64,000 nucleotides of DNA, from NCBI GenBank assembly GCA_963422615.1, contig OY730414.1, positions 1,178,001 to 1,242,000 of the forward strand. Reading direction: 5' to 3'. The number at the start of each line of letters is the position of its first letter. Positions within the stretch are counted from its first letter, which is position 1. Shown here piece by piece: positions 27,503 to 44,838 of this stretch. This DNA is from Longimicrobiales bacterium (lineage in GTDB: Bacteria; Gemmatimonadota; Gemmatimonadetes; Longimicrobiales; Gaopeijiaceae). The notes beneath the pieces were generated by a model, which was not told the origin of the DNA, did not search any database, and was given only the letters and a program-made list of their open reading frames with translations. The translations under genes were made by a program, and so were the position numbers.

Positions 27503-28006
27503 CTACATGTCCGGGAAGTCTGCCGTCGGACCCATCGTCGGGGGCACGGGCACATCCAGGAGGCGGAGGTAGACGCCCATCTGGGCCCGGTGGTGAATCA
27601 TGTGGTCCAGGATGAAACCCCGGAGAACCGCCCGCTTGGGCAGGGAGAAGCGGGTCTCGCCCCGGACAAGCAGGCTCCAGGGCGCCTGGAAGTCTTCCTC
27701 CGAGGCCCGCTCAATGGCCCCTCGGGCTGCTGCCGCATTCGTGTTCAGGGCTTCGACGAGCCGAGCGCTGGAGGCGTACTCGGCCATCGGCGGCGGGTCG
27801 CCCTCCGGGTCGATGTTGAATGTGGACTCCGCGAGGGTCGGCAGGGTCCATTGCGGCAGGTTGGCGATGTGGCTCCCCAGTTTTCCCAGCGTCCACGACT
27901 TCTCGTGGGGCCGCCAGTCTATCCGGTCATCCGGAACGGACGCCAATACCGCTCTACAACCTTCAACGACGCGGTCGAAGGCCATCAAGAAAGCTGTGTC
28001 CGACAT
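27503..28006 (-). CDS. DinB family protein
   Basis: WRPHEKSWTLG.L..H and HMIHHRAQMGVYLRL motifs; ATG at 28006 with GGAGG upstream. Confidence 0.9.
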   Translation of the reverse strand: MSDTAFLMAFDRVVEGCRAVLASVPDDRIDWRPHEKSWTLGKLGSHIANLPQWTLPTLAESTFNIDPEGDPPPMAEYASSARLVEALNTNAAAARGAIERASEEDFQAPWSLLVRGETRFSLPKRAVLRGFILDHMIHHRAQMGVYLRLLDVPVPPTMGPTADFPDM

Positions 28007-28495
28007 GAACCCACCTCCGATATTTTTCGATATAGGAAAAGGCCACCAACGGCCGCCGGTGGCCAAGGCGACCGGGGACAAGCCGGAACGTCAAGTCTCC
28101 GCCGGGAGATCAGGTCCCCTCATGTTCTTCAAGGTATCTTCAAGGTAGATGAGGGAGAGACGCGGCGGAATAGCCCGCTCCGCGAGCCTCGCTGGGCGGG
28201 GCCCTCCGCCAACCCCCAGCGCCCAGTTCGGCGAACCCGGCCTCGGATGGGCCAGGCCCGGTCATGGTACCCATGGAGGCGAGCGTGGCCCGAGCAGCCC
28301 GAAGACCAGGGCGCCGGCCGGATTGGCGGGAGGCGGCTTGTCGTTTGTACTCTTGGCAACCGTGAAGGGAGCGCGATGGCCCAATCGTACGTCACGGATA
28401 CGGGTCGCGGGGCCAGCGGCCCGCGGCACAATCCTTCCGCCCACGATGGAGTAGGGCCCATGCCGAATCCCGCCCTCGGGATCCCTAGCTGAATC

Positions 28496-31400
28496 ATGAA
28501 CGGCAAGCGGCTGCCGATCGGGGTCGGCGCGCTCTTCGTCGTCGCGCTGGGCGTCCTGTGGCGGCTGGCCCAAGCTCGGCCAGAGTGGCCATGGTTCTCG
28601 ATCGGGCTATTGCTCCTGATCGCTTCGATCTCTCTGGGCGCGGTTCCCGGCCTGCGTGCCCGCCTCGGCGCTGGGTGGCCCTGGCTGACCTTCTTCAACC
28701 TCGTGGCGGCGGGCTTCTTTGTCTTCTTCCTCTTCCAGGTAGAGACCTATCGTCAGCGCAGTGAGCGCCTCGAGGTGCGGGGCGTGTATTTCGATCCGGC
28801 TCCGGCGTCTCTGCGAATCGGCGTTGGACACGACAGCCTGGATGTTCGCTTGGAGGGCTCGCCCGAGACTTTGGACCGCTGGTTCGTTGAATTGCAGCGG
28901 GGGCCGGGAAGCGGCTACCGGATCGGATCCACCGGAGACGTGGATATGATCGAGCTTTCCGAAAAGGGCTGGCTTCGGCGCCGATCCTCGAGTCGGCGTC
29001 CGGTCCACGGCTGGGCGTTGAGCGGGTCGCGGCCCGTCACCCTGACCCTCAGGGGCCGGGAGGCGGAAGGCGCGGTGACCCTCGCCCTGGTGCGGGGGGG
29101 AAAGCGGGGCACCCTGATGTGGGATGCCCAGCGGGCCCACCTGTCCATGGAGGACGACATTCTGGACCGGCGCCTGGCGCGGGGCCTGGCCAACGGCATC
29201 GAGGTCGGAAGGTTGCCATGGGACTCGGTTCCGGACCCGGCCCTGGCCCGGGACCTCGTCATCACCCGGGCTCGCCCGGGACACGCCCCCGGCGGGGTTG
29301 TGCTGCGGCTGCCGTCGTTTCGGGTCGTGTCGAGAAGCGGGCGATGGGTCGCGCAGAGTCCCACCGTCTCCCAGAACGCCGAAACCGTGCCGGACCGGAC
29401 CGTTGCGCCCGGCGACTCGGTGTGGGTGACGTCCCGAGGGAAGACGTGGGCGTTTTCCTTGGGCGCCCTTACCGAAAGGGGTTTGGCCAGCCCCCCCGTA
29501 GCGGTCGGCTTCGTGCGCCGTCCCCGCCCGAACGGCTGGGCGCTTCCCGCTCGGCAAGACTGCGGTGGTGCGGGGGTGTGTGCTGTACTGTCGAGCCGTC
29601 CCCTTCCTCCGCCGCTGGCGCACTTCAACCTGGAAGCCTTTGGACTCGACACGACCCGCTACGCCTACCTCGCCCGCCTCTCTGTGGAGGCCGACCGCGT
29701 GTCCCTGGTCGGTGCCTGCGACAGCACGGCTTTCCCGGTCGGGGCGCGCCAACCCTCCAGGGCGTTTCCCCTGGACGGCGCTTCGGCCGGGTGCGCCTCG
29801 GCTGGCGCGACTTTGTCATCGGGGGACCGTGCGGAAGCGGGACTCCTTCTGCGCGTCCGAAGGGCCGCCGCGGGGGACCGGACCGACGTGGCCCGGACCT
29901 TGGCCGCCCTCCTCGCCATTCTGGGCGGCGCCTTCCTGGTGCTAACCGGCAACCACCGACTCAAACAAGCGGCCCGGATGGCGGGGGCCAACCCGCTCTG
30001 GTGGCTCTTCAACCTGATCGTGGTTTTTCTTGCCGTCCGCCTGGCCCTCGGGCTCCGGGTTGCCTACGCGTCGCCCTACTATGAGCGGGCAGCGGAAAGC
30101 TCTGTCGGAATGTGGGTTGCCTTCTCCGCACTTGTCGTTGCGCTCGGACGCTGGACGTGGTGGGCGCCGCGGTGCCTGGCGGTTTTGCTCGCTGCTTGGA
30201 GGCGTCTGCCCGGGAAGGGGGGGTCGCGTCCGTGGTTCGAGCCGCAAGAAGGCCCGGACCCGTGGAGCTCGGGGTGGCCCCGGCCACCAATGCGTCCCGC
30301 TTCGGCCCCCCAGGGACGCGCCCCGGGGGATTGGGCCTGGCCGGGCGCGATCCTGATGGCCACGGGATCGGTCTTTGTTCTGTTTCAGTACTCCGGCGCC
30401 TTCGTCATGGGTCTGGCCGTCGCGGCCATGTGTGCGGGGCTGTGGGTGCTCCCGGCCCTCGCGGACGCAAGTTCCGTCTCCCTGGGCCCGGTTCGTCTTC
30501 TGGCCAGCCCGGTTCGTCTGGGGAGAGGAGGGCGCACCCGAGCCCAGGCCGGAACCCGCGTGCCCGCGGCCGAGGCCAAGGGACGCGCATCTCGTAACGA
30601 GCTGGCTATCACGGCGGGTTTTGCGGTAATCGTGACGTTTCTGGTGTACGCGCCGGGTGTCGCACTCGGCATGTCATTTCTTCTCTTCGTGGTTTCCCTT
30701 CTAGCGCGTCTGCGATCTCGAAGACCGGAGGACCGGGAGTCCCGTGTTGGCGGAGAAGACGCTGCGGTCCAGCAGCCACTTCGCGGCCGATCCGTGAGGG
30801 GCCCGAGGAGATCTCGGCTGATCCGGTTCCTAGCGGAAGCCGGGGCCGAGAAGTGGGGAGCGGGTGCCGCCCTTCTCGCCCTTCTTCTCACCCTCTTCGA
30901 CCTTCCCCTGATCTTTCGGTTCTGGCTGGTCTTCTTTCTGTTCCTGCTGACGGTACGGGCCGGGGCGCTGGGCCACCGGGTCATCCGGGAAGCCCGGGGA
31001 TGGGAGAAAACGGCCACATCCGTCGCCAGTCTCCTCGTGGTTCCCTTGGGGGTGCTGGTTGGCTTCACGATCTTCGATTTCGGCCTCGGCCTCGTTTTCT
31101 TCGTGCCCGTGCTCGTCACCGTTGTTCTGGGAATGGACCTGAAGCGGGTTTGGGACAACTTCAGCCAGCCGCCCGGCCGCTTCCCCGGGTTGGTCTTCGT
31201 CCTGGTGTTGCTGGCCGTCGTCTACGGCACGAGATCCGTGCTTCGCCCCCCCGTGGGCCCGCTCGAAACCGCAGCGACCGTGCCGGCCTACGCCGAAGCC
31301 TTTGTCGGGACCGGAAACCGGGCCGTCGACTTGGCCCGGAAGATCCCCTTGCTGGACGGACCCATCACCCGGGCGACGGTCAGGAGCCTGGCGGCCTCCC

Positions 31401-31975
31401 ATCCCCAACTGCTGGAAAAGGCCCTCGCTTACGCCGGCCGCAGCGAGGCTCTCGAAGCCGCCCAGCCGTCCATCGAACAGATTTGGGGAGGTCGGGCCTA
31501 CGCCGCCGCCGGCTGGTTCGGTACGGGCTTTGCCGGGACCACTTTGCTGGGAAGAGGAGTGCCGACGGCGGTGTCGTACGCCGAAAACACCTTTTCTGTC
31601 TACATCCTGTCGGAGCACGGCGCCTTGGGCGGGCTTCTGGTTCTGCTCCTCTACAGCGCGTTGCTCGGAGGAACGGCGCTGTGGGTCTTGGGCTTGCAAA
31701 GGGATGAAGTGGCCACGCCGGATAACCGAGTGATCCTGGCCGCGGTCGTGGGCGGAGCGCTGTGGATCACCGTCCCCGCCTTGTACGTTGCCGCGTCGAA
31801 CTTGGGGCTGGTTCCGCTGACGGGCCAAAACATGCCCTTCCTGGGCCTCAACTCCTGGGCGGATGCGGTCCTGGGGGTCGGAGTGAGCACGGCGATGCTG
31901 GCCGCCCTGGCCCACTTCGCGGTAAAGGGACGGGGTGGTGTGCCTTCGGACGCCCGGAACGCCCGCCATGCGTGA
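28496..31975 (+). CDS. large divergent FtsW/RodA/SpoVE (SEDS)-like membrane protein with a ~390-aa soluble N-terminal insert
   Basis: C-terminal DFGLGLV, AAAGWFGTG, ILSEHG and LVPLTGQNMPFLG match SEDS signatures; many TM helices; directly followed by a PBP gene. Confidence 0.75.
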   Translation: MNGKRLPIGVGALFVVALGVLWRLAQARPEWPWFSIGLLLLIASISLGAVPGLRARLGAGWPWLTFFNLVAAGFFVFFLFQVETYRQRSERLEVRGVYFDPAPASLRIGVGHDSLDVRLEGSPETLDRWFVELQRGPGSGYRIGSTGDVDMIELSEKGWLRRRSSSRRPVHGWALSGSRPVTLTLRGREAEGAVTLALVRGGKRGTLMWDAQRAHLSMEDDILDRRLARGLANGIEVGRLPWDSVPDPALARDLVITRARPGHAPGGVVLRLPSFRVVSRSGRWVAQSPTVSQNAETVPDRTVAPGDSVWVTSRGKTWAFSLGALTERGLASPPVAVGFVRRPRPNGWALPARQDCGGAGVCAVLSSRPLPPPLAHFNLEAFGLDTTRYAYLARLSVEADRVSLVGACDSTAFPVGARQPSRAFPLDGASAGCASAGATLSSGDRAEAGLLLRVRRAAAGDRTDVARTLAALLAILGGAFLVLTGNHRLKQAARMAGANPLWWLFNLIVVFLAVRLALGLRVAYASPYYERAAESSVGMWVAFSALVVALGRWTWWAPRCLAVLLAAWRRLPGKGGSRPWFEPQEGPDPWSSGWPRPPMRPASAPQGRAPGDWAWPGAILMATGSVFVLFQYSGAFVMGLAVAAMCAGLWVLPALADASSVSLGPVRLLASPVRLGRGGRTRAQAGTRVPAAEAKGRASRNELAITAGFAVIVTFLVYAPGVALGMSFLLFVVSLLARLRSRRPEDRESRVGGEDAAVQQPLRGRSVRGPRRSRLIRFLAEAGAEKWGAGAALLALLLTLFDLPLIFRFWLVFFLFLLTVRAGALGHRVIREARGWEKTATSVASLLVVPLGVLVGFTIFDFGLGLVFFVPVLVTVVLGMDLKRVWDNFSQPPGRFPGLVFVLVLLAVVYGTRSVLRPPVGPLETAATVPAYAEAFVGTGNRAVDLARKIPLLDGPITRATVRSLAASHPQLLEKALAYAGRSEALEAAQPSIEQIWGGRAYAAAGWFGTGFAGTTLLGRGVPTAVSYAENTFSVYILSEHGALGGLLVLLLYSALLGGTALWVLGLQRDEVATPDNRVILAAVVGGALWITVPALYVAASNLGLVPLTGQNMPFLGLNSWADAVLGVGVSTAMLAALAHFAVKGRGGVPSDARNARHA

Positions 31976-34208
31976 GCGGGGTCAGGCGCTTCCCGCCGTC
32001 TTCCTGGCGCTGATGGTCCTGGTTGCGGCGTGGGTCGGGTTGGGCGTCGTTCGCGCCGCCGGCGACGCCCGCTACCGGAGTGGCCTTGAGTACCGGGCCT
32101 TCCGCAGTGCCTTCGAGGATGTCTTCAGGCCCGGAGACCCGCCCCTCATCGTGGCCCGTTCGGTGGAAGTTCCCTTGGCGGACGGGACGGTGGCCACGAT
32201 CGACACCCTGGCCGTCGTGGCGGACTCCGTTGCCCTGCCGGGGTTTCAACAGGGGGGCTTCCTTCGAGACAACGTGGAGGCGTTCAACCGGGTCCAGTGG
32301 TTGCGCGCCGAGTTCGGGCTCACCGACAGCACCCTCTTCCGCCGGCCTGCGGGTCACGGTCGTTCCGTCTACCGGGTCGAAGAGGGAGTCTACCGCGTCG
32401 GTGGAAATCGCCGGGACGACCGCAGTCGGGTGGTTCCGTCCCCGGCCGTCTGGAACCTGGCGATTCCTTCGCCCTTCCAAGAGGCGTGGTTCGGCAGGGT
32501 TCTGGCTCGGTCGTCAAGCCTCGTGCCCGGTCTGCTGGGTCCCGGCCAAGCGATTCCCCTGGATCGCTCAACCCGGCGGGAGGTCGTCGTACAGGGCCGT
32601 CGGCGGCCGTGCGACTTCGAGGCGGATGCCGGGGACGTGCGGGTCTATTGCCTGTCCCAAGAGCGTCTGCCCCAGGTCTCCTTCACGGGCATCGCCGACC
32701 CGGCGGCGGATCGTTCCATGGCGGTTTCCGGATGGGACCACCTGTGGCTGCAAGGACGACGGTTGCCACCGAACGATTCGTCTGAAATTCGCCGGCGGGA
32801 GTCGGTCATGGTGATCCCGCCCCTGCCGCCCGTCCTCTTCTCCGACTACTGGGAAGGGCAGATGTCGAGCATTCAGTGGATCAACGGACGCGCCCGGCGT
32901 CGCGGGGAGGGTTCACCGCCCCTTGACCTGCTGGGGGACCTGGGCCGGGCCCGCCCGAACTCGGGCGCGGGCGATGTTCGGCTGAGCGTCGACTCCGAAG
33001 CCTCCCTCGCCCTGACCCGTAGCTTGAACGCCTTCCTGGGAGGGTCGCAGGTCCCTCCGGTCGACTTCGCGGTGGCCATGGTGGCCATGATTCCCTCGGG
33101 TGAAATCCTCGCCATCGGGGAGACGGGTGCCCGGCTCGGGGGACGGAGCAACTTCCTGAGGCGGGTTGCCCCGGGCTCCACCGTAAAGCCGCTCCTGGCC
33201 GCCGCCGTGCTTTCGGAGGAACCTGGCCTTGACTCCCTCCGGGTACGGGCCCGGAGTGGTCCGGTGCGCTCCGTCCAGGGACTTCCCGTGCTGCCGGCCG
33301 TCGAAGCGTTCCGGACCCAGCTGTACTGCGAATATCCGTCGGACGGGTGGGTGGACCTCCAGTACTTCATCCGCTGCTCCAGCAACGAGTACGCCGCAGC
33401 CTTGGTCATGGCCGGCTTCGGGAGGAACGCGCTTCAGGGTCGCGGGGTGCCTAGGGACCGTCTCCTCACGAGCCCGCTGGCCAGAGGGATCAACACCCTC
33501 TACGGACTTGCCACCGATCCCCAGATCGCCGACGATGTGCCCTTCGTTCCGGGCTTTTGGTCCGGGGTGACGTTCGAATCGGGAGAAGGCGTCGTCCCCC
33601 CCGCAGACGTGATGCCCGCCCGGTCCAGGCCTGCGCTACTGGCGACCCATCGGTCGGAGGGAACGGACATCGCATACCTGTACCGGTATGCCTACGGCGC
33701 GTGGGAAAACCGGTGGACCGTGCCGGACCTGGTTCAGGGTTTTGCCCGGATCGCCACGGACCAGGCCCTGACCCTGACCATGGCCGCCGATCCTGCACCA
33801 AGCGCCGACGCGCTGGGCCTTGCCGGACAGGCGTGGTACCCCACCCTGTTGCAGGCCCTGAGACGGGTGGGAGAAGACGGCACCGCCCCGGGACTGAACG
33901 AAGCGTGGACCGTCCCTCCACAGGCCGTCCGCTCGGAGGGGTCCCGGCCCCGCACCACATACGCCAAGACGGGCACCCTGAACGAGCCGAACGACCGCCT
34001 CTTCGTCAAGGCGTTGCTCTTTGCCACCGGCGAACCGGATTCGGGGCAGCGGGCCCTGGCGTGCGGCTTCGCGGGAGCTGTCTATTTCAAGTTCCGGACC
34101 GGACCGCCGGGCGGCGGAAGTCTGCCGAGCTATCAGGTAGACTTTGCCCGAACCGGTTTGGCCCCCTTGTTGCGAGAACTGCTGGAGCGCCACGCTCCAT
34201 GTGGTTGA
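31968..34208 (+). CDS. penicillin-binding transpeptidase-domain protein (class B-like)
   Basis: N-terminal TM; PGSTVKP (SxxK), CSSNEY (SxN), AKTGT (KTG). Confidence 0.85.
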   Translation: MRERGQALPAVFLALMVLVAAWVGLGVVRAAGDARYRSGLEYRAFRSAFEDVFRPGDPPLIVARSVEVPLADGTVATIDTLAVVADSVALPGFQQGGFLRDNVEAFNRVQWLRAEFGLTDSTLFRRPAGHGRSVYRVEEGVYRVGGNRRDDRSRVVPSPAVWNLAIPSPFQEAWFGRVLARSSSLVPGLLGPGQAIPLDRSTRREVVVQGRRRPCDFEADAGDVRVYCLSQERLPQVSFTGIADPAADRSMAVSGWDHLWLQGRRLPPNDSSEIRRRESVMVIPPLPPVLFSDYWEGQMSSIQWINGRARRRGEGSPPLDLLGDLGRARPNSGAGDVRLSVDSEASLALTRSLNAFLGGSQVPPVDFAVAMVAMIPSGEILAIGETGARLGGRSNFLRRVAPGSTVKPLLAAAVLSEEPGLDSLRVRARSGPVRSVQGLPVLPAVEAFRTQLYCEYPSDGWVDLQYFIRCSSNEYAAALVMAGFGRNALQGRGVPRDRLLTSPLARGINTLYGLATDPQIADDVPFVPGFWSGVTFESGEGVVPPADVMPARSRPALLATHRSEGTDIAYLYRYAYGAWENRWTVPDLVQGFARIATDQALTLTMAADPAPSADALGLAGQAWYPTLLQALRRVGEDGTAPGLNEAWTVPPQAVRSEGSRPRTTYAKTGTLNEPNDRLFVKALLFATGEPDSGQRALACGFAGAVYFKFRTGPPGGGSLPSYQVDFARTGLAPLLRELLERHAPCG

Positions 34209-35746
34209 AGCGGCGGCGGACCCCCCGAAGAATGGGGGCCGAAGGCGAAAGTCCGAAAGAGACGGCCCGCCGGGCCGGTCAGCGGGTTCGCAACGCTTTG
34301 GTCGGTGAGCCCCAGGGCCCCGAAAGCGAGGGCCCTCGTCCCCAGCCCCATGTTCGGGATGGCCTCCCGGGGTCCGGCGAAGGTTCCGAAGCGCCCAGAG
34401 TCGCGGGGGCAAGGACCGCCGGAGACGGTTGTGACGAAGACGATCCCTTCATCCTCGGCCTGACCTTCCGGGTTCCCGCCGGACAGAGTCCCCGGAAGCT
34501 GGACAGGGTCATCCGGGGCTTTCTTACGGAAATCGAGGACCTGCTTGATGAAGACTTCGCCCCTGGCGATTTGCCGTCGGCGTACGGCCAGCGACACCCG
34601 GAGCTGTTGCCTTTGCGTGGGGGCCACGGCTTGCACATGAGATCGGTGCCCGATCCCAAGACGGCCCCGAGCGGTCCTGTCGCCTTCGCAATTGAGCGTC
34701 GTTGCGGGGCCCCTCCGGACCCAGCGCACGGACTCCTGGTCGCCCGGCGAAGGAACGTGTTTCGGTCCGCGGTCCGCCCCGTGCGCGAAACGCTGTCGGG
34801 CGGGCAGGTCGTGTACGCGGGCAACGCGGACCTGGATCTTACCGTCGGCCCTGGGGGAGACGTGGACTTGGGCGACCTGTCCGGGAAGCTGGCGTGGAAC
34901 CCTTCCCGCGGATGGACTTGGTGGCCCGGCCCCGAGAAGGGAGACCGGTTCGAGTCTCCCTTCTCCGGTACCTCCGGGCCGAGCGGGCAAGTATGCCGAC
35001 AAGAGGACGACGTGGTTTTTCTCGATCCCGATGGCAGCGTGGCCGCCCGGGCCGTTCGTTTCCGGCGTCCGGTGTCGGCCAAGCGGGCGCGGCTGCTGGC
35101 GGGGCCCGTGCCGTCGGTGGGACTCTATTTTCGCGGGAGGGTCTTGCGCGAACCTTTCCCCATGGGCAGTGTGGCGACCTTTCACGAATATGCAGGGGTT
35201 CCGATGCCGGATGGCGTGGTGAACGCCATTGATTTGGGAGATGTGTGGTTGGGCATCACGGAGAAGCGGGGTGTGGTGGGGCATTGGCCGGCATCTCGGA
35301 AAACCGAAGTCGTGAAGGGCGCGGTGGGCATCCCCTCCTGGTCCTGGGAAGGGGAGGTTGAGTTCTCGGTCGCCGTCGTTGACCTTCCCCCGAAGTGCAT
35401 GGCGGCCTTTCTCATGAGCGGGGGCCACCGGGTGCGAATCGGACGGGCGACTCGCCAGCAGCCCCTCGTGTTGGGGCGCGGTGGCGCGGGCGGAACGTCA
35501 CTCGTCGGGGACGATCCGTTCTTTTGCGGGAGCACCCGGTTTTCCGCCGCGGCCTCGGGCACTGACGGCCACGGGAGGGTAGCGGTTCGCGCCGGGACGC
35601 GGAGCGAAGCCCGGGCTTGGTACCGGGACCGGGGTGGCCAAGGCAGGACCGGGGCGTGGAAGCCCATCGGTGCCCAGGGGGTTCGGGTTGCGCCCGGTGC
35701 GGACATCGTGGTGGGGTCCACTTGGTACGAAATCGACCGGGAGTAG
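34199..35746 (+). CDS. hypothetical protein with a possible C-terminal FHA-like domain
   Basis: Overlaps the PBP stop; LVLGRGG...VRVAPGADIVVGST resembles FHA start and end strands. The ORF-track extension to 33557 overlaps the PBP gene and is ignored. Confidence 0.6.
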   Translation: MWLKRRRTPRRMGAEGESPKETARRAGQRVRNALVGEPQGPESEGPRPQPHVRDGLPGSGEGSEAPRVAGARTAGDGCDEDDPFILGLTFRVPAGQSPRKLDRVIRGFLTEIEDLLDEDFAPGDLPSAYGQRHPELLPLRGGHGLHMRSVPDPKTAPSGPVAFAIERRCGAPPDPAHGLLVARRRNVFRSAVRPVRETLSGGQVVYAGNADLDLTVGPGGDVDLGDLSGKLAWNPSRGWTWWPGPEKGDRFESPFSGTSGPSGQVCRQEDDVVFLDPDGSVAARAVRFRRPVSAKRARLLAGPVPSVGLYFRGRVLREPFPMGSVATFHEYAGVPMPDGVVNAIDLGDVWLGITEKRGVVGHWPASRKTEVVKGAVGIPSWSWEGEVEFSVAVVDLPPKCMAAFLMSGGHRVRIGRATRQQPLVLGRGGAGGTSLVGDDPFFCGSTRFSAAASGTDGHGRVAVRAGTRSEARAWYRDRGGQGRTGAWKPIGAQGVRVAPGADIVVGSTWYEIDRE

Positions 35747-35749
35747 GGG

Positions 35750-37753
35750 ATGGGAGGCTTCGTCAAACTGAGTCAACCGGGGCCGGAGGGAGCCACGAGC
35801 GCCCCCAGGTGGGTCCGGGTGGTGCGCCAGGAAAGCTTGCGGAGTCCCTATGGGAGGGTGGCGGAAGTGTTTATCGCGGCCTTCGCGGGTCGCAGGCTCG
35901 ACAGTCAGGACGCTGCCGGGCTGCGGGACGCCGCGGTCGACTGCGCGGGGGACCCCTCGGCCTTTGCCGCCGCCGCAAAGGCTGTACTGGAACGGCTGGA
36001 AACCCCGGATACCCTGCCGAATTTCTTCTTCATCTGCTATGACGACCAGATCGACAGCAACGACAGGGACAGGATTGAGGAATTCAGTGCCGGCTTCGAA
36101 GGATCGCACAAGAATCGCCTCTTCGACCTTGCCGCTGCGTGTATCGATGAAGTGCCCGCTTTTCTGGGCGGCTGGTTCAGTGCCCGGGGCTACGACGAAA
36201 ACCAAGATGGTCCCCGGAGCGACTTCTTTCGCTCCGAGTATGAAATCGGGGTCGTTCATCGGGCCCTGCCTTCCGGAGCCATGCCCATTCCCCAGCATGG
36301 CGGACAGGTTCAGATCGTACCCAAGGTCAGCGCGCACTTGCTCCTCGGGAAGGCCCGGGCCTCGGATCGCGGGACCGGTGCCGGGAGGCGGGTCATGGTG
36401 CCCGCCCGAATCGAAATCATCGGGGACGACGGCAATCTGAGAATCCGAAAATTCCTTCGGGACGAGGAGTTCGGGGATCGTTCTCCCCGCCAGCTGTTGT
36501 TGATCGATTCCGAATCCCTGTGGAACTTCACGATCGGAAACGGGGATTGGGACGACATTTTCGTCCCGGACCTGGTGGACTGCCGGGCGGAACTACGAAT
36601 CACCGTTCAGCGCCAGCCCTTTGCCGACACCCCGCTGGTCACGGTTGCGGCAGATGTCCCGAAGGGTTGCCCGCGCTTGGAGAGCGACCCGGACGTTCGG
36701 AGACCCATTCGCCACCGCCTTCGGATTCGGCCCGCCCACGAGTCTTCTTCCCGGACAAACGGCCCGCCGATCGTGCAGGTTCACGCTTTCGACCCGCCGC
36801 TCCCTCTCTCCGCAGTCGCCGATGCGCCGCTGTTCAACCCGGTCTTCCGGGTCGTGGCTCGCCTTTTGCCTCGGCCTGTGCGGAACATCCAGAACATCCC
36901 CCGGGACGTCCGGGGGGACGACGTTTTCGGGGCTCGAAGGTTCGGGAAGGCGACGCTTCCAGGGCTGCAAGAGGACGGTCCGTCGGCGGAGTCGCTCAAT
37001 TCGGTGGAAGACTTCCTGACCGTAGGGACCGTGCCCCTGAAGTCGCTCTTGTTTGGTATCGACCGATACGGCAAGCCCTTCTTCAAGGTGCTGGACGATG
37101 CGCCCCTGAGGCAGCTTTCGCTGACCCGGAGGGGTGATGAGCTCCCGATCGGCAACGAGTCCATTCGTCTTGAACACGGCGACGAGATCCGCGTGTCCTC
37201 CCCCACGGAAACCCTTCGCCTGTTGTGGAAAAACTGCGGAGAGGGAGGGTTCATCGACGGTTTGAAGGATGTTTTTGCAGGAGGGTTCCAGGTCTCCCGG
37301 GAGCGGGGGTTGGAGGGGACGCTGGTTCGCCAAGGGGAATACGAGACGATAGACCCTCAAGGGGGCCCCAACCGGTGCGTGTTGATCGGCCGGTCGCGGG
37401 CGACGGAACCCCCGGCGTGGCAGGATGACAGGGCCGTGACCCAAATGCCGGTCGGGGACCCTTACCTGCCTCACGATGGGATCGTGACGATTGCACCCGT
37501 CCTGCGAAACGAAGACTACCAGGTTGTTCTCAAGGCCGTGCCGAATCTACGCCCCGAGTATCGCGACCGGGTCTTCTTCGAGGGCGCCGACTTCCAATGG
37601 TACCGGTGGGACGACAACGGCACCGGGAAGGGCGAATCGTTGCGCTCGGTGTCGCTGGCCGCAGTAGAAGAAATATGGTCGAAGCACCTGAAGATGCAGA
37701 GGTTTGTGCTGGGGTCCACGCTCATTTCGGCGACCCTGTCCGGCACGGTGTAG
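35750..37753 (+). CDS. hypothetical protein with several FHA-like segments
   Basis: 3-nt gap to the previous gene; FTIGNGDWDDIFV, IRLEHGDEIRV, VLIGRS...RFVLGSTLI. Confidence 0.65.
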   Translation: MGGFVKLSQPGPEGATSAPRWVRVVRQESLRSPYGRVAEVFIAAFAGRRLDSQDAAGLRDAAVDCAGDPSAFAAAAKAVLERLETPDTLPNFFFICYDDQIDSNDRDRIEEFSAGFEGSHKNRLFDLAAACIDEVPAFLGGWFSARGYDENQDGPRSDFFRSEYEIGVVHRALPSGAMPIPQHGGQVQIVPKVSAHLLLGKARASDRGTGAGRRVMVPARIEIIGDDGNLRIRKFLRDEEFGDRSPRQLLLIDSESLWNFTIGNGDWDDIFVPDLVDCRAELRITVQRQPFADTPLVTVAADVPKGCPRLESDPDVRRPIRHRLRIRPAHESSSRTNGPPIVQVHAFDPPLPLSAVADAPLFNPVFRVVARLLPRPVRNIQNIPRDVRGDDVFGARRFGKATLPGLQEDGPSAESLNSVEDFLTVGTVPLKSLLFGIDRYGKPFFKVLDDAPLRQLSLTRRGDELPIGNESIRLEHGDEIRVSSPTETLRLLWKNCGEGGFIDGLKDVFAGGFQVSRERGLEGTLVRQGEYETIDPQGGPNRCVLIGRSRATEPPAWQDDRAVTQMPVGDPYLPHDGIVTIAPVLRNEDYQVVLKAVPNLRPEYRDRVFFEGADFQWYRWDDNGTGKGESLRSVSLAAVEEIWSKHLKMQRFVLGSTLISATLSGTV

Positions 37754-37761
37754 CCGTGGGG

Positions 37762-38736
37762 ATGCTTGGCACGTGCGAGACCGGTTCACCGGCTTCGGGA
37801 GGGTTCGCCGACCTTGTGCGTCGTTTCGTGTTCGCGAAAGCGCTCATCCCTGCCGATGCAGCACTGCAAGCGGGCCCGGTCGGGTCCAGGAACGTACGGC
37901 ACTTCGTGGTGCAAGGGCCCGAACGATGCCTTCACGTAAAGGGTGGATCCATGGTGGAGGAGCTGGTAGAGCGGGAGCTCCGGGCCATAGAAGACGCCCC
38001 GGCCGGGGTGCGGCCCCATGTACTCCATGCCTTCGGGTTGGGCGGGGACATCGGACCCCGGTGTTGCTTCGTCATGCCTCACTATCAGGCGTTGCCTTAC
38101 TTCGAGTTATCCGAACCCGAACAACTTGTCCTGGCGCTTGCCGCGGCGGACGTGGCCTGGCACCTCTGGACGAAGAAGCGCCTGCATTTGGATCTGAAAC
38201 CCGACGTATTCTACGCCGACCCGCTTCCGGCGGGGGAAGAGCGTCTCGTAGTGCTTGACTACAACGACGTGTACAAGTGGCCCCCGTCTAGCAACGATTC
38301 CATGGTGTCGTTGGATCGTTTCGGGGACCCGGATCACCCCGACCTGAGGGGAAGAGAGTGTGGCCGTGATATAGGTGCACTTGCCCAGCGCATCCAGGGG
38401 TTGGAAGATCGGCTACTCAGCTTTTCGATGGCCCACCTCCTTGCGTTGTCCGCGGGGATTCGGGGGCCCAGCCCCGGCGGTGAAGCGCCGAACGCCAAGC
38501 GGGACGTATCCGGTCGTTTGGCTGCCCGGTTCTCCCTGATGACGCAGACGGCGGAGATCTTGGAGCGCGGCCTGCGACGCCGGATGGCGGACCGTCCCCC
38601 CTTGCAGGAACTGATCCATGCTCTGGCCGACGCCGCAGCCGACCTCCCGCTCCGGGTTGGCGGGAACGGGTCCGCGATCGGGCTGACCGAAACCGTGGCC
38701 GCCCGCTACCTTGCGCTACGAGAGGAGCGACCGTGA
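37762..38736 (+). CDS. divergent Ser/Thr protein kinase-like protein
   Basis: HVK (beta3 Lys), ERE (alphaC), FVMPHY, LHLDLKPD, VVLDY, DRP; start at 37756 or 37762. Confidence 0.72.
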   Translation: MLGTCETGSPASGGFADLVRRFVFAKALIPADAALQAGPVGSRNVRHFVVQGPERCLHVKGGSMVEELVERELRAIEDAPAGVRPHVLHAFGLGGDIGPRCCFVMPHYQALPYFELSEPEQLVLALAAADVAWHLWTKKRLHLDLKPDVFYADPLPAGEERLVVLDYNDVYKWPPSSNDSMVSLDRFGDPDHPDLRGRECGRDIGALAQRIQGLEDRLLSFSMAHLLALSAGIRGPSPGGEAPNAKRDVSGRLAARFSLMTQTAEILERGLRRRMADRPPLQELIHALADAAADLPLRVGGNGSAIGLTETVAARYLALREERP

Positions 38737-40145
38737 GTCGGCTAGCCATCGGCGTGGCAGCCAGCCCGGGTGCGTCCAAGCGGGGTGGTGCATCGGAGGA
38801 TTTTGCTTGGCACAAACGAATCGGCCGATCCGGCGTCGTCGTGGTCGTGGGCGACTTCGCGCCGAACCGGGCCGCCGCAAAGGTCGCAAGTCGGGTTGGC
38901 GGAAAACTGGACGAGAGCCTGGAGCGCCTTTGGAAGGCCGGCGTCGTTGCGGCCGACCTGCCCACCGCGCTGGTCTACGAGCTGGCAAACGATCTGTACG
39001 TGGAGAACGCGAAGATGGGCGGGGCCTCCTGCCCCCGTTGCTCGGTGGTCGCCTTCGCCATCCAACACCGGCGCATCTGGGCGACCCAGGTGGGTGATGT
39101 TCGTCTGGCGATCGAGGGAAAGGACGGACCGGCCCATCCCGAACGCCGGCTCTTCTTTCCCGGCGGGTCCAACTGGATGCGGGCGACCGCCGACCCTGGG
39201 CTGACCGGGGATTCGTCTTATAGCCGAGCCCGCCCCGATGCGATCGGCCTGGACGAAATCCCCAGTCCCCTGAGCCTTCCCGGCTGGACCGGCTCCCTGG
39301 AAGCCGCGACCCGGATCCTCTGCTACACCGACGGGTTCGAAGACGGCTGGACGCCCGCACGAACCCTGGAAGTCCTGAAGGGAGAAGACCCGGGCGACCC
39401 TCGAGGATTGGCGGCTACCCTGGTCGAAACGTCCTCCTGCGACCGGGGCGATGATGACATCACCCTTGTGGTCGTTGAAGGATTCGCGAAGGCGCCCGAT
39501 CCCCTTGCGAAGCTTCGCAACCACTTCGAAAAAGCGAGAGAAGACGATAGGCGCGAAGCCACAAGCCGACTCGCGGAGATGCAGCGGAAGCAGGGCGAAT
39601 GGGACCGGCACCTCGCAGAGACGCGCACGTTGCTCGAAGACAGGCAAAGGGAAATGCTCGCGCTGCGGAAAAGGATCGACGAAATGGCGAAGGCACAAAA
39701 AGAACACAAAGAACGGAGCGACGAACAGGTCGGTCGCTCCGCCCAGCCCGAGCAAGCAGGGCCTGGTCTTCCGGAGCCGGTCGAGATCCGGGTCAAGGGC
39801 ATACCTACGGAGGTGACGCTCCGCCCAGGGGGAGGACCCGCCTCGTCGGGTTCGAACCTGGACGGCGAGGCGGCCTCAAGCCCCCGAGGAAGGGCTGGAG
39901 GATCTCTCTGGCAGGACAAGTGGATGAGGGTCCTTTTTCGGACGTTCCTGCTGTTCATTACGGTCTTCGCCCTCCTCGGGGTGATCTGGTTGGGCGTCGT
40001 CGTTCGGGCCGGCATCGGGGCGACCGACCCGGGAGCCACGAATGATGAGACCCAGGAGGCAACGGGAGGGGAGGGGGACCCGGAGGGAGGGTCCGACCCG
40101 GGGGCAGCCGAGGAGGACTCCGCAGGGAGCCGCCCGTCTGGGTGA
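38733..40145 (+). CDS. PP2C-like phosphatase with coiled coil and C-terminal TM helix
   Basis: SED, VVGD, QVGDVR, CYTDGF and DDITLVVV motifs; charged helical region; hydrophobic TM; GTGA overlap with the kinase gene. Confidence 0.8.
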   Translation: MSRLAIGVAASPGASKRGGASEDFAWHKRIGRSGVVVVVGDFAPNRAAAKVASRVGGKLDESLERLWKAGVVAADLPTALVYELANDLYVENAKMGGASCPRCSVVAFAIQHRRIWATQVGDVRLAIEGKDGPAHPERRLFFPGGSNWMRATADPGLTGDSSYSRARPDAIGLDEIPSPLSLPGWTGSLEAATRILCYTDGFEDGWTPARTLEVLKGEDPGDPRGLAATLVETSSCDRGDDDITLVVVEGFAKAPDPLAKLRNHFEKAREDDRREATSRLAEMQRKQGEWDRHLAETRTLLEDRQREMLALRKRIDEMAKAQKEHKERSDEQVGRSAQPEQAGPGLPEPVEIRVKGIPTEVTLRPGGGPASSGSNLDGEAASSPRGRAGGSLWQDKWMRVLFRTFLLFITVFALLGVIWLGVVVRAGIGATDPGATNDETQEATGGEGDPEGGSDPGAAEEDSAGSRPSG

Positions 40146-40166
40146 GCCCTGACGGACCTGGCGCGC

Positions 40167-41744
40167 GTGCCCCTTTGGCAGTGGTTCTATCTGGCCCTTC
40201 TCGCCACTGCGGCCGTGTGTGCAGTCCTCACCCTGCTCCGGTGGAGGAGCACGTTGGACCGGTGGCACAAGGGCGGCTTCTCGGATACGACCGCTGGATC
40301 CACCGAACTCACCGCCGAAATCGACAAGTGGGTCCAGTCTTCGGGCGGGCTGATCGGGGGGCTGGAGGCCCTGCATTTGGCCCTCGACCACCGCCACGCC
40401 CGCTGGAGGCGGGGGGCGGGCCTGCTCGTCCTGGGCGGGCTGCTGGGGACGGTCATCGGATTGGTCGGCGTTTCCGGTCAGCTGGCCGAGGTCTTTCGCG
40501 ACACGGAGAATAGCCAGATCCAGGCGGCCCGGGATCTGGGTGAGGCCCTGGGGAACCTGACTTTCGCCTTCCTCTCCACGTTGGTCGGCGTGGTCGGCGC
40601 TCTGGTACTGAGGGTTGTCCTCCTTTGGATCGAGGCGGGGGTGGGGGGATGGGCGCACGAGTTCGTGGACTGGGACCGGGCCATCGTCAATGCGGTGGGC
40701 CCGTTGGAGCGGAGCGCCAAGCGGCTTGACGAGGTATCCGACAGCCTCTTGCGTCTTGTGGGAAGCCCGGGGGAGGGGGAGCAGCGGGTGGGCGCCCTCG
40801 TGAAGACGGCGGCCGCCTTGGACCGGGCGGCCCTCGCTCTGCAAGAGGGAGTCAACGCCTGGGAGGCCCGGCTGAAGGCGTGGCGGCAGGACCGGGACGA
40901 AGCGTGGGACCGGTGGAGCCGAGAGATGAAGGAGGGACAGGGAGCCCTGGACCGAGTGATCGACAAGATGGCCAGGCGTCAAGAGGCCGAGGACGAGAGG
41001 GTCCGGGTCCTCTTGGGGGGTCTGGAAGCGGCGGTTGCGGCCGGTACGGAGACGATCGGGAAGAAGATTGCGGCGGGCGCAGCGGAGATCCGTCGCCTGA
41101 TCGAAAGTGGAACGGGACACATGGAGGGCGTCCTGCAACAGAGTGCGGACGCCCACGCAGAGCGTTTGACCACGCTTCGCCTGGCCACCCGGGAGCTCAC
41201 CCGGCACATCACGGGTTTGGTTGACCGGGCGGACAACCAAACCCAGCTGTTCCGGGGGATTCAAGAAGCGCTGGACCGGGTTGCCGGGGCGACCCAGGAC
41301 CTGGTGGAGGGCGCGGAGTCGCGCCTGGGCGACATTGGCAACAAGCACGTCGAAGCGCTGGATGCCGTTGCCGCCGAGCTTCGGAGTGCCTTCACCGGGG
41401 CCGAGCAGCGATGGGACGAGAGGTGGCGGAAGGTGTTCGAGGAGCTGCACCAGGCCACCGTTGCGCTGAACGGTCTTATGAGCCGCCTGACGAATGAACG
41501 GGACAGGGGGGTTGCCGAAAAGGAAAGCCTGAAGCGGGCCGCCGACGCGGTCGCCGAGCACTTGATGGGTCTTGAGGGTCACGTCGCAGACACCCGAAAC
41601 GTCATGCAGGATTCCCGGAACGTCATGCAGGACACAAGGGAAATCGTGATTCTCATAGAAGAAGCGTTGCGCAGAATCGGCGATCGCTTGGCCGTCTTGG
41701 ACGACGCGCCCCGGGACCGCATCCGGGACGAAGGGAGTGCGTGA
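40167..41744 (+). CDS. MotA/TolQ/ExbB-family proton channel with a long helical tail (ZorA-like architecture)
   Basis: Three TM segments with GLLGTVIGL and AFLSTLVG, then ~370 aa of amphipathic, heptad-rich sequence. Confidence 0.78.
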   Translation: MPLWQWFYLALLATAAVCAVLTLLRWRSTLDRWHKGGFSDTTAGSTELTAEIDKWVQSSGGLIGGLEALHLALDHRHARWRRGAGLLVLGGLLGTVIGLVGVSGQLAEVFRDTENSQIQAARDLGEALGNLTFAFLSTLVGVVGALVLRVVLLWIEAGVGGWAHEFVDWDRAIVNAVGPLERSAKRLDEVSDSLLRLVGSPGEGEQRVGALVKTAAALDRAALALQEGVNAWEARLKAWRQDRDEAWDRWSREMKEGQGALDRVIDKMARRQEAEDERVRVLLGGLEAAVAAGTETIGKKIAAGAAEIRRLIESGTGHMEGVLQQSADAHAERLTTLRLATRELTRHITGLVDRADNQTQLFRGIQEALDRVAGATQDLVEGAESRLGDIGNKHVEALDAVAAELRSAFTGAEQRWDERWRKVFEELHQATVALNGLMSRLTNERDRGVAEKESLKRAADAVAEHLMGLEGHVADTRNVMQDSRNVMQDTREIVILIEEALRRIGDRLAVLDDAPRDRIRDEGSA

Positions 41745-41855
41745 TGAGCCGATGCCGGCGCGTAGTCCGGAAGCGTGGCCCTTCGGCCCTTCCTGCGCCC
41801 AGCGGGTCCTCCCCCGATGCCTATCGTCCCCAGCCCTTCCATGTGTAGGGATCCG

Positions 41856-43682
41856 ATGCGCAGGTCGGTCCACCCGGTCGCCGTCTGTATCGTTCTGGTC
41901 GGGTTGTCCCTCTCTTGGGCGGCGGTTCCCTCTGCCGGGGACGCTCAGCTTGTCCGGGGCCGGCTCGTGGAAGCCGAAGAGGAAGTCGGCGTCGGCGGGG
42001 CCATGATCACGCTGGTCAGCCGGGAGGGCCGCGCTATCGAACGGGTCCTCACCCGAAGCGGTAGCGGCCTCTTCCAGCTGAAGGCGTCCGGGCCGGGGGA
42101 GTACCGCCTCCGGGCCGATAGAATCGGCTACGCCACCACCTACTCCGACTACTTCCGCATCGCTGGCGGGGACACGCTGGGGGTCGAGATGGCGGCCCGG
42201 GTGGAGGCGGTGTCGCTGGAGGGCATCGAGGCCGAGGGGAACCGGCGGTGCCGGGTGCGGCCCGAAGAAGGCTTGGCCGTGTATCGGGTCTGGGAGGAGG
42301 CCCGGAAGGCCCTGATCGCCGCGGCCTGGACCCAGGAACGCGGCATGTATCACTACGAGATGCTGCGGATCAAGCGGAATTTGGACCGGGAAGGCCGCAG
42401 GATCGAGTCCGAGGACCGAAGCTACGGACAAGGGTACAGCGAAGCGCCGTACGTTGCGCGGCCCGCCGACTCCTTGGCGGTCAGCGGATTTGCTCGATTT
42501 ACCGAAAGCGAATCGGTCTTCTGGGCGCCCGACGCCGGGGTTCTCCTTTCCGACGCATTCCTGGACACCCACTGCTTCAGGGTCGAGGCCGGCGGGTCGG
42601 AAGCCCCGGGGCGGGTCGGCCTGGCGTTCGAGCCCCTGTCGGAGCGAACCGTTCCCGAGATCAGCGGGACCCTCTGGGTCGACCCCGTCACGGCGCGGCT
42701 GAGTTGGCTGGAGTACCGGTACGTAAACCTGAACATTCCCCGGTCCCTCTTGGCGGCGTCCCCCCGCGGTCGAGTCGAATTCCAGGAGCTGCCCAACGGT
42801 ACGTGGATCGTGACCTCGTGGAGCATTCGGATGCCCCGGCCCGGGGTGGTCAGCCACTTCCGGTCCGGTCGGCGGGTTCCGGTTCCCACGCTGGACGGCA
42901 TCGCTGTGGCGAGAGGCGAAGTATTGCGGGTTCACGGGAGTGAAGGAGTCGTCTTCGAGGGTGATCCGGGAAAGCGGATCATCGGAACCGTCTTCGATAC
43001 GCTCCGGATCGGACTCCCGGGGGCCCGGGTGTTTGTCGAGGGCACGGGAACGGAGGTCGTGACCGATTCGGCGGGTCACTTCGAGCTCACCCATCTTCGG
43101 TCCGGCGTCTATACGCTCTACTTCACGCATCCCTATCTCGATCCCCTGTTGTTCCTGCCCGAGCCGATCGAAGCCAAGGTTGAAGAAGGAAAAGACCCCC
43201 TGCGGGTGGATTTCTTCGCGCCCACGCTGGAGCGGGTCATCGATGAGGTTTGCGACGGCGACCGCCAGCCCGAGGCCCCCTTGATTGTGGCTGAAGACGA
43301 GCGACTGGCTTGGCCCCGGGGTATCCTCACGGGGCGGGTGACGGACCCGGACGGAAATCCCGTCAGCGAAGCAACCGTTGTCTTCCTCTCCAGAACGTAC
43401 GAAATCGAGGCCTATGTGGATGCCACGGCCAAAGGAGCGGGTCGGCTTCGGGAGGGGCGTCGGGGCGCCGTGGCGAAGACCGGCGGGTCGGGGGTCTATC
43501 GCATATGCTGGGTACCGGTCGGCGCGCCACTGGAGGTTGCGGTCCTGAAAGAGGGGGAAGCCCTCAATCCCTCAAGCGTGGATGCGTCGTACGATCTGTC
43601 GGACTTCTTCCCGGGGAGAGTGCGGACCCTGACCGTCGTCCCCCAATCCCCCTTTGCTACCCTGAACCTGCGGACCCGATGA
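41856..43682 (+). CDS. secreted carboxypeptidase regulatory-like domain protein
   Basis: Signal peptide; three repeats of the G.V.D..G.P...A.V....T...G.F.L...G.Y pattern; LLSDAFLDTHCF. Confidence 0.8.
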   Translation: MRRSVHPVAVCIVLVGLSLSWAAVPSAGDAQLVRGRLVEAEEEVGVGGAMITLVSREGRAIERVLTRSGSGLFQLKASGPGEYRLRADRIGYATTYSDYFRIAGGDTLGVEMAARVEAVSLEGIEAEGNRRCRVRPEEGLAVYRVWEEARKALIAAAWTQERGMYHYEMLRIKRNLDREGRRIESEDRSYGQGYSEAPYVARPADSLAVSGFARFTESESVFWAPDAGVLLSDAFLDTHCFRVEAGGSEAPGRVGLAFEPLSERTVPEISGTLWVDPVTARLSWLEYRYVNLNIPRSLLAASPRGRVEFQELPNGTWIVTSWSIRMPRPGVVSHFRSGRRVPVPTLDGIAVARGEVLRVHGSEGVVFEGDPGKRIIGTVFDTLRIGLPGARVFVEGTGTEVVTDSAGHFELTHLRSGVYTLYFTHPYLDPLLFLPEPIEAKVEEGKDPLRVDFFAPTLERVIDEVCDGDRQPEAPLIVAEDERLAWPRGILTGRVTDPDGNPVSEATVVFLSRTYEIEAYVDATAKGAGRLREGRRGAVAKTGGSGVYRICWVPVGAPLEVAVLKEGEALNPSSVDASYDLSDFFPGRVRTLTVVPQSPFATLNLRTR

Positions 43683-44452
43683 GGAGCCACCGCGCCCGGG
43701 CGGGAGAACGGGAGGGGAACTGGCAAGTCTTTGCGGACTTGGGTCTGGCGCTTGTCTTGGTGCTCTTCGCCGTCGTGGCGTACCAGTTCGTGCGCAACCG
43801 CGATTTCTGGCTGCGGGAGAAGATCGTCTTCAGTCAGGAACGGGTCGATTCCATCATCCGGGAGCACTTGGCCGACACTTCACGGTACAGGGTTTGTCCT
43901 CCGGACGGGGACAGGCAGGCGATTGTTTTCGGGGCCGACGCCACCTTCGAGATCGGAGACTGGCGGCTCAAGAGAGAAGGAGCGGAGCTCTTCCAGCGTT
44001 TGGGCGCCGTGTTGGCGGAAGTCGACACCGTACTGGGCCAAATCGATGTGGAAGGCCACACGGACTCGGTTCGCATCAACCGGGTCGGCGTACGGTCGAA
44101 CTGGCAACTTTCCACCCTGCGGGCGCTGGCCGTCACAGACTCCCTTCGGACCCGCCCCACCCTGGATTCCCGGAAACTGGCCGTGGTGGGTCGGGGCCGG
44201 TGGAGGGAAGCCATGTCCAACCAGACCGAAGAGGGTCGGGCCGCGAACCGGCGAATCGAAATCTCTCTGGTCTATTCCCCCGAAGTGCTGGGTCCCGTAG
44301 GCATGGAGAGCCTGGGGGCCCTCTTCGACACCATCGGAAACCGGGTCCGCCGTCGCATCGACGTGCTCCCCCAGCCTTCCAGCGCGCTGCAAACAAGGCC
44401 CTTTTTCCGCCCTCGCTGCCGGGGCGAAGCCAGACTTCCGGTAGTCCGATAG
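43679..44452 (+). CDS. OmpA/MotB-family protein (ZorB/MotB-like)
   Basis: WQVFADL plus a single TM helix with the conserved Asp; VEGHTD, NWQLSTLRALAV, NRRIEI; ATGA overlap with the previous gene. Confidence 0.88.
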   Translation: MRSHRARAGEREGNWQVFADLGLALVLVLFAVVAYQFVRNRDFWLREKIVFSQERVDSIIREHLADTSRYRVCPPDGDRQAIVFGADATFEIGDWRLKREGAELFQRLGAVLAEVDTVLGQIDVEGHTDSVRINRVGVRSNWQLSTLRALAVTDSLRTRPTLDSRKLAVVGRGRWREAMSNQTEEGRAANRRIEISLVYSPEVLGPVGMESLGALFDTIGNRVRRRIDVLPQPSSALQTRPFFRPRCRGEARLPVVR

Positions 44453-44524
44453 AAGGCAGGCGCGCAAGCGTCTTCGAAAGGAGAACCCCCTCAGGTGACG
44501 CTGGGCGGGACCCCGAGACGGGAT

Positions 44525-44601
44525 CCACGGCGCGGCGGAGCCACCTCAACGAGGTCGCTCAGGGGGCTCTGCGCCCAAGCCGGTGTCGAGTCGTATCAGG
44601 T
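44525..44601 (+). repeat. degenerate copy of an internal segment of the downstream SusC-like gene
   Basis: 44544-44601 matches 45720-45776 with 4 mismatches and 1 indel. Confidence 0.88.
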
Positions 44602-44611
44602 TCCCCGGTCG

Positions 44612-44628
44612 CCCCCCCCCCCCCCCCC
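44612..44628 (+). repeat. homopolymer C17 (intergenic)
   Basis: Counted directly from the sequence. Confidence 0.9.
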
Positions 44629-44838
44629 TTGTCCGGTGCCGTCGCTACTGTCCGGTATCGCCTCTATGTCTTCGTGAGATGGATGCGCTTACATTCGCGC
44701 TTCGCGCGACCGGAGGAGTCGAACCGCAAATCTCCGCGGTCCGATGGAGTCCTTGACCTTCGCGAACCCGGTTGTGCGTCAGAGCCGTCCATTCGGGCCG
44801 GCGATGTTTCCAATCCATCAGTTTTCTAAGGAGGGCAC

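Follow-up and report, generated by a model that had tools for sequence, protein, structure and literature searches.

An accessory family of paired SEDS and class B penicillin-binding proteins with recurring motor-like or GTPase-like partners, and its nine-gene variant in a Longimicrobiales genome

The DNA analysed here (the window) is a 64,000-nucleotide stretch of a Longimicrobiales genome (contig OY730414.1). It carries an operon of nine genes, designated A to I, the first two of which encode a giant FtsW/RodA-like SEDS protein and a class B penicillin-binding protein (PBP; bPBP for class B). The real result of our analysis is the SEDS–PBP family to which A and B belong, together with the motor-like or GTPase partners that recur beside it, the nine-gene signalling chain proposed in the initial annotation of the window being one lineage's variant. 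Our tentative preference is for a reading in which A–B serves as an accessory wall synthase that couples to interchangeable modules for sensing the envelope, represented here by a ZorAB-like motor and a kinase/phosphatase relay.

The operon of nine genes was confirmed. The source genome (G000) is a single 2.57-Mb contig that is 98% complete, and the open reading frame (ORF) map places nine co-oriented ORFs on the + strand at positions 28496–44452 of the window. The tight spacing described initially held for all junctions but one: A/B and B/C overlap by 8 and 10 nt, C/D and D/E are separated by 3 and 8 nt, E/F overlap by 4 nt, F/G are 21 nt apart and H/I overlap by 4 nt, while the G/H junction is wider, at 30 or 111 nt depending on whether H starts at GTG 41775 or ATG 41856 (in sum, four overlaps, three gaps of 3–21 nt and one of 30/111 nt among eight junctions). 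Codon scores of all nine ORFs were best in the annotated frame of the six (0.11–0.34) and negative in all other frames, which rules out a wrong-frame artefact, including a 1084-aa antisense ORF over G/H. A promoter scan at the operon returned 0 sites, and the sequencing runs listed for the locus include no RNA run. The operon is flanked on the 5′ side by rhomboid-, HAD- and DinB-like genes (HAD by family model, rhomboid and DinB named from sequence by eye) and on the 3′ side by susC/susD; as originally stated, no mur, fts or mre genes were found in these flanks.

Table 1. Genes of the nine-gene operon, with positions in the window
Gene	Position	Strand	Length (aa)	Assignment	Basis
A	28496..31975	+	1159	giant SEDS (FtsW/RodA-like) protein	TIGR02614 E=1e-3; hhalign to own FtsW/RodA
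B	31968..34208	+	746	class B penicillin-binding protein	predicted structure, Foldseek, motifs
C	34199..35746	+	515	soluble orphan; FHA-like C-terminus by eye only	codon score
D	35750..37753	+	667	soluble orphan; candidate FhaA_N/FHA-like	Atlas lead 0.87
E	37762..38736	+	324	degenerate Hanks-type kinase-like protein	hhalign
F	38733..40145	+	470	PP2C-like phosphatase domain, coiled coil, one transmembrane helix (406-424)	weak profile matches
G	40167..41744	+	525	MotA/ExbB/ZorA-like subunit	PF01618 E=5e-4
H	41856..43682	+	608	secreted carboxypeptidase-regulatory-domain protein	PF13620 (CarboxypepD_reg) E=1e-23
I	43679..44452	+	257	MotB/ZorB-like subunit	PF00691

Protein A is a divergent SEDS protein and a predicted glycosyltransferase, upholding the first call of a giant FtsW/RodA-like protein. 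A transmembrane (TM) scan (~16 hydrophobic segments) gave three N-terminal TM helices, a ~380-aa soluble insert and ~13 further TM helices, and a search for FHA in the insert was not significant against shuffles. The family profile of A matched the genome's own FtsW/RodA with an hhalign probability of 89% (E=2e-6), a homology confined to the C-terminal half, the N-terminal SEDS loops giving no confident alignment. In this profile alignment E1030 of A falls on the Asp of the H/T-D-F motif of the genome's FtsW/RodA, a column that is acidic in 72 of 74 SEDS sequences (E in 51, D in 21). According to the accessible text of PMC8765783, the putative catalytic Asp in extracellular loop 4 (ECL4) is D297 of E. 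coli FtsW.

B had no Pfam match in a library scan and is a class B PBP by its predicted fold and its motifs. The AlphaFold (AF2) model, computed from a 76-sequence alignment, has a predicted local distance difference test score (pLDDT) of 91, matched PBP3 in Foldseek (E 3e-13) and superposed on PBP3/PBP2 over residues 172–746, pedestal included (VIA-align Z 29.8, root-mean-square deviation 3.5, 372 aligned). The motifs are S404/K407 (SxxK), S471/N473 (SxN) and K667-T-G (KTG), and S404, K407, S471, N473, K667 and G669 are invariant across 76 PBP sequences, so that the transpeptidase with intact motifs of the initial annotation stands; B would be expected to cross-link peptidoglycan and to be acylated by beta-lactams. 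A single TM helix is followed by a pedestal with a degenerate FHA-like beta insert (~residues 195–290) and by the transpeptidase domain. Within it, residues 235–286 align to an FHA profile that we constructed, over the C-terminal half of that profile (E=1.5e-4, probability 51%). Since this part follows the single TM helix, it is probably periplasmic and could not read cytoplasmic phosphothreonine. Elsewhere the genome has both a complete dcw cluster and mreB-mrdA-rodA genes in a cluster; A–B is thus a third pair, additional to the canonical FtsWI and RodA-PBP2 sets, and a housekeeping identity is ruled out.

The family is sparse. At E below 1e-40 it occurs in 17 of 401 genomes of the phylum (G000 included), the other listed phylum matches being 2e-17 or weaker and restricted to the motif region that housekeeping PBPs have as well. 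Within the source organism's own taxonomic family, 28 of 314 genomes match a query with the relative P0006, which misses distant branches, and in another phylum, that of genome G442, two of 251 match. A profile search of 1.84 billion representatives yielded 76 proteins at 1e-30 and 297 at 1e-10. Members are found in Gemmatimonadota, mainly Longimicrobiales, and include natural SEDS–PBP fusions of 1500–2000 aa, one of which (P0110) is listed by NCBI for the cultured Gemmatirosa kalamazoonensis. Genome and metagenome scans gave 64 oriented loci, 44 of them with at least 300 bases upstream of the PBP gene; a SEDS gene lies directly upstream in 42 of these, counts that overstate independence because the loci include near-duplicates. 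In the remaining two, one match begins mid-PBP and the other is marginal (E=9e-5). A tblastn search of plasmids with two distant PBPs found no match, and none of 34 pattern matches in viral contigs was confirmed as a family member.

The clearest recurring partners were found in a sister clade (28–34% identity). There, in all 21 loci with at least 300 bases downstream, the next gene encodes a ~390-aa protein for which four hydrophobic helices are predicted, together with a helical tail, and a ~160-aa single-TM protein with an invariant Glu follows in 19 of the 21 (the other two are cut short), as scored with profiles built from the same loci. The 390-aa protein has an Atlas lead to MotA_ExbB (0.88, 176 shared features), and the 160-aa protein matched the ExbD periplasmic domain (hhalign E=6e-4, probability 28%, 27-sequence profile). 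Shallow-profile comparisons of the two with ExbD and ExbB were negative or tail-only, and PDB sequence searches with their alignments gave coiled-coil or marginal matches only. PADLOC ZorA matches were seen in 16 of 17 members; in the member displayed they map to the helical tail, and they were not counted as homology. The link of a wall synthase to an ion-motor-like pair thus recurs. The conserved four-gene operon SEDS–bPBP–390 aa–160 aa (loci L036–L039 and L116–L133) is the cleanest experimental version. Atlas also lists unnamed look-alike clusters of the 390-aa protein in Pseudomonadota at 0.95–0.96.

Sixteen other loci in the phylum were read for partners. Nine seem to be bare pairs. Three (G147, G310 and G325) have DO-GTPase-like neighbours (Pfam E 8e-7 to 7e-3, mostly under the cut-off), and another three (G044, G290 and G341) share an upstream block of five genes that includes a P-loop protein and gives a weak GAP1-M match. 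This block, apparently present in G183 too, consists of a small TM protein, a TM protein, a GAP1-M-like protein, the P-loop protein and a TPR-like protein (L090 in G044, L091 in G290, L092 in G341, L089 in G183), lies upstream of a very distant SEDS–bPBP pair and shows mutual E-values of 1e-15 to 1e-117. The window proteins matched neither the DO-GTPase/GAP1 Pfam families nor the GTPase/GAP1-like neighbours of these relatives.

G and I share the architecture of ZorAB by sequence, and might assemble as a 5:2 motor. G consists of three TM helices, bearing the motifs GLLGTVIG and AFLSTLVG, whose Gly/Thr residues align with the TM motifs of the genome's own ExbB/TolQ/ZorA, and a ~370-aa helical tail. 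I combines one TM helix, whose Asp20 lines up with the TM Asp of ZorB2 from the same genome, with an OmpA-type peptidoglycan-binding domain (E=2.5e-12 to 6e-12). The MotA-like gene with a long tail, the MotB/OmpA-like gene and, as a domain, the carboxypeptidase-regulatory protein of the initial annotation were all recovered. Its ZorA/ZorB-like label fits in part: the design is that of ZorAB and I matched PADLOC ZorB3 at E=1e-13, but G reached only E~1e-4 against the ZorA models, compared to 4e-157 for the true ZorA2 of the same genome, and none of the nine proteins matched a Zorya effector (ZorC/D, ZorE or the type III set) in PADLOC at E<=0.1, the gene downstream being susC. G had no match in 400 other genomes. 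FliG_C had no match in G000, the control being positive in 4 of 14, and the lack of FliG rules out a flagellar stator. The clear ZorA2/ZorB2 pair of G000 (G000:C1:1662506-1664665; L141:2507-4665, − strand; PADLOC E 4e-157 and 2e-88) has two neighbouring ORFs without a PADLOC match, and no ZorE was seen there.

The genes between synthase and motor-like pair fared less well. The initial call of two FHA-like genes was not borne out: C had no Pfam, NCBIfam or PADLOC match, neither C nor D had a Pfam FHA match, five segments tested all scored within shuffle range, and Pfam FHA was not found anywhere in G000. The one pointer is the Atlas lead for D, which is below the Atlas mark of 0.9; D had no homologue among 8000 scored candidates, and its single-sequence structure model failed (pLDDT 32). 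E is kinase-like to a degree. Compared with nine kinases it scored 31.7 in hhalign (E=1e-3), above all 12 shuffles (maximum 20.5), and it keeps the catalytic Asp (D144), K146 and the DFG Asp (D166), but the Mg-binding Asn is replaced by V149 and DFG reads DYN; the TM scan found no TM helix. In F, described initially as a membrane-anchored PP2C-like protein, the TM helix and acidic metal-site motifs are present in the sequence, but the profile matches are weak (SpoIIE E=0.007, PP2C_2 E=0.02, NF033484 E=0.04), and a separate set of 8000 scored candidates held no homologue of the PP2C domain. PDB sequence searches with E and F gave 0 matches at E<=10.

We examined how far the set is conserved. 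Within the species, strain run X6, from another study and ~96% identical, covers 25800–41976 and 43678–45699. Two contigs carry these parts, and in one of them 41976 is directly followed by 43678, deleting 1701 nt of H in frame. The deletion keeps the stop codon of H overlapping the start of I, and the eight genes A–G and I are retained, small indels having been only partly checked for frameshifts. H also has paralogues elsewhere in G000 (56% and 47% identical), indicating that it is a dispensable passenger and not a core part. Runs X7 and X8 gave scattered short pieces only. None of the other species searched yielded the nine-gene set, the closest relatives being bare two-gene cassettes. Searches with C–I over relatives' loci by tblastn and phmmer found nothing close; the phmmer screen (2643 ORFs, 122 loci) gave one marginal match and, as I did not recover ZorB2 of the same genome, which served as positive control, excludes only close homologues. 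Of 104 relatives with a HAD match, 20 were retrieved; none of these has a SEDS–PBP cluster within ~12 kb of the HAD–dinB site and gene content varies, which suggests an insertion hotspot. In G183 and G290 the site is occupied by members of a distant branch of the family. With respect to the co-occurrence of MotA/MotB-like genes with SEDS, PBP and FHA genes in other genomes, on which the initial annotation staked its proposal, the window's own G/I, kinase, PP2C and 'FHA' genes were not found beside the pair in the other species searched, but the sister clade carries its different MotA/ExbB-like and ExbD-like pair. As anticipated, no match to a characterised system was found, and the operon is neither a Zorya system nor an actinobacterial pstP locus.

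In the accessory-synthase reading that we tentatively prefer, A and B would form a pair of peptidoglycan polymerase and cross-linker that spreads horizontally and makes or mends wall at particular places and on demand, and not for growth or division. G and I would assemble into a ZorAB-like 5:2 ion motor, with I gripping peptidoglycan when the envelope is disturbed, perhaps by a phage, a predator or a wall-active compound. Ion flow via Asp20 would turn G and its cytoplasmic tail, and the soluble C, D and E together with the membrane-anchored phosphatase F would relay the signal to the synthase and reset it. In favour of this reading are the canonical wall-synthesis clusters elsewhere in the genome, the patchy distribution of the family, the adjacency and natural fusion of its SEDS and PBP genes, the retained catalytic positions, the motor-like and DO-GTPase-like partners of other branches, the eight genes kept in X6 together with the H/I overlap, the lack of FliG and the variable insertion site. 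Several observations weigh against it. B is sister to P0006 with support 1.00 in a FastTree tree of 170 transpeptidase regions and nests among PBPs of bare two-gene cassettes in unrelated surroundings. An OmpA domain was found in 0 of 35 downstream genes tested (Pfam with I as working control; one to three genes per locus, 22 loci) and the sister clade's motor-like gene in 0 of 35 close loci, which indicates that the SEDS–PBP pair can persist without a linked sensor. Searches of other species gave no close homologue of C–G or I. G/I and the sister-clade pair are not detectably homologous (probability 2% and 0.3%), and the motor identity of the latter is no more than a lead. The kinase is degenerate, the FHA calls fail, and Glu at the catalytic Asp position of A may alter or abolish polymerase activity. 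Neighbouring defence genes are few: PADLOC matches at 1e-12 occur in 7 of 56 flanking proteins of multi-gene loci, in five loci (HNH, PDC-S11, PDC-S03, TIR and two to the pAgo model), and in 9 of 78 beside bare pairs, all through generic kinase, ATPase (ABC) or methylase domains.

The initial proposal of a ZorAB-like sensor signalling by phosphorylation to a wall-remodelling pair survives in one half, the recurring link between synthase and motor-like pair. Phosphorylation as the link is weak, given orphan genes, a degenerate kinase, unsupported FHA calls and a sole FHA-like signal in the periplasmic part of B. A defence role is no more than plausible. A bolder version, which we regard as rather unlikely, is a novel envelope immunity with wall synthesis as its effector, in which a ZorAB- or ExbBD-like motor or a DO-GTPase would sense a breach and activate the Glu-type SEDS–bPBP to seal or thicken peptidoglycan at the site of attack. 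If true, a 5:2 ion motor would be directly coupled to a peptidoglycan synthase, an arrangement that would have arisen twice in one family.

The main rival, unlikely in our judgement, is that two independent modules met at an insertion hotspot and were later co-transcribed, namely an autonomous SEDS–PBP cassette and an orphan kinase/phosphatase/ZorAB-like conflict module (atypically Zorya-like, with C, D and E as effectors). In its support, every close relative is a bare pair whose surroundings are unrelated, the HAD–dinB site is variable across relatives, and the passenger H is also tightly spaced in the operon, so that tight spacing alone is no proof of function. Two loosely associated modules fit less well with the 10-nt overlap of B and C, with a block that is intact in the second strain, and with motor-like or GTPase genes that repeatedly follow the family in other branches. 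That the second subunit of the sister clade is closer to ExbD/TolR than to ZorB, and that most sister-clade loci have no defence neighbours, would suit instead an envelope-spanning contact or export machine, comparable to the Agl-Glt, Kil and Tol/Ton systems, in which the motor gives force, the SEDS–PBP pair remodels the wall around the machine and defence plays no part. Machines of this kind typically have FHA-like pieces, PP2C and anchors with an OmpA domain. We nevertheless consider it improbable, since the loci examined have no conserved outer-membrane or secretion component and many family members comprise only two genes.

We give similarly little credence to the idea of an alternative wall synthase that is regulated and serves morphogenesis or growth under stress, in which, by analogy with the actinobacterial fhaAB-pstP-rodA-pbpA-pknAB locus, the motor-like genes would sense wall tension for housekeeping. 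The functional categories are the same as in that locus, as far as the available text of PMC6554272 describes it, and Pedobacter ginsengisoli has a fused SEDS–transpeptidase with kinase and phosphatase alongside (PMC12516126, available text). However, the patchy presence (~4% of genomes), variable location and changing partners of the family are unlike a conserved morphogenetic locus, and neither a PASTA kinase nor a canonical FHA was found.

Beside one sister-clade operon, in a Polyangiales genome (L036:8965-16676), the four genes are followed by an HNH nuclease, a PDC-S11 match and two genes reading like type III restriction-modification; the operon was possibly transferred into a defence island. 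In the window itself, a type ISP/IIG restriction-modification enzyme (1654 aa, 16611–21575, − strand) lies 7 kb upstream of the operon. The susC-like gene at 44839–47725 is split over two overlapping frames, plug domain then barrel, by a frameshift or an assembly error. A 75-bp intergenic copy of the adjacent susC interior (44527–44601, 87% identical) is apparently replaced in X6, and a 72-bp intergenic copy of the interior of the motA-like gene (93% identical) lies at G000:C1:111318-111389.

SEDS–bPBP pairs are viewed as machines of growth, division and sporulation, while 5:2 ion motors are seen to power motility, transport, constriction of the outer membrane or the recruitment of nucleases. 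Both pictures would be broadened by a mobile Glu-type SEDS–bPBP family that standard annotation misses and that is linked time and again to motor-like or GTPase modules, and the four-gene sister-clade version and the fused P0110 offer compact test objects. Like RodA-PBP2 and FtsW-FtsI, A–B are encoded by adjacent genes and have the pedestal and transpeptidase fold, SxxK/SxN/KTG, and the ECL4 and TG..P motifs. Unlike them, A is about three times the normal SEDS length, with a large soluble insert and Glu at the catalytic Asp, B has an FHA-like insert, and the pair is below Pfam cut-offs, accessory and patchy. In our literature search, which lay largely outside subscription journals, we found no description of this family or of a SEDS–bPBP pair linked to an ion motor.

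G/I resemble ZorA-ZorB of Zorya, as presented in the accessible text of PMC11946911, in having a 3-TM MotA-like subunit with a long helical tail and a single-TM partner with a TM Asp and a peptidoglycan-binding domain; in ZorAB, according to the same text, effector recruitment or defence is lost in the D26N mutant of the motor and when the tail is truncated. The window operon differs in that it has no ZorC/D/E-type effector match, its pair is split by the passenger H and it is linked to a wall synthase. DO-GTPase/GAP1 systems, in the main text of PMC7159879 as available, are described as conflict systems, GAP1-N2 systems acting near the membrane and some including kinase and PP2C, with no mention there of FtsW, RodA, transpeptidase or penicillin. 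They are akin to the other branches of the family, with their DO-GTPase-like genes and weak GAP1-M match, no GTPase or GAP1 having been detected in the window. The actinobacterial locus likewise unites SEDS, bPBP, a membrane-anchored PP2C and a kinase in one cluster, but is conserved throughout its phylum, has canonical enzymes and lacks an ion motor (PMC6554272, available text); its kinase is a transmembrane PASTA protein whereas E is soluble and degenerate, and canonical FHA proteins were not found in the window. The nearest published case is the giant SEDS–transpeptidase fusion of Pedobacter ginsengisoli, likened to the window family by description only. In the part of PMC12516126 at hand, it is reported without a pedestal and no motor pair is mentioned; as in the window, it is a third, oversized unit beside a kinase and a phosphatase, and the window family also has fused members.

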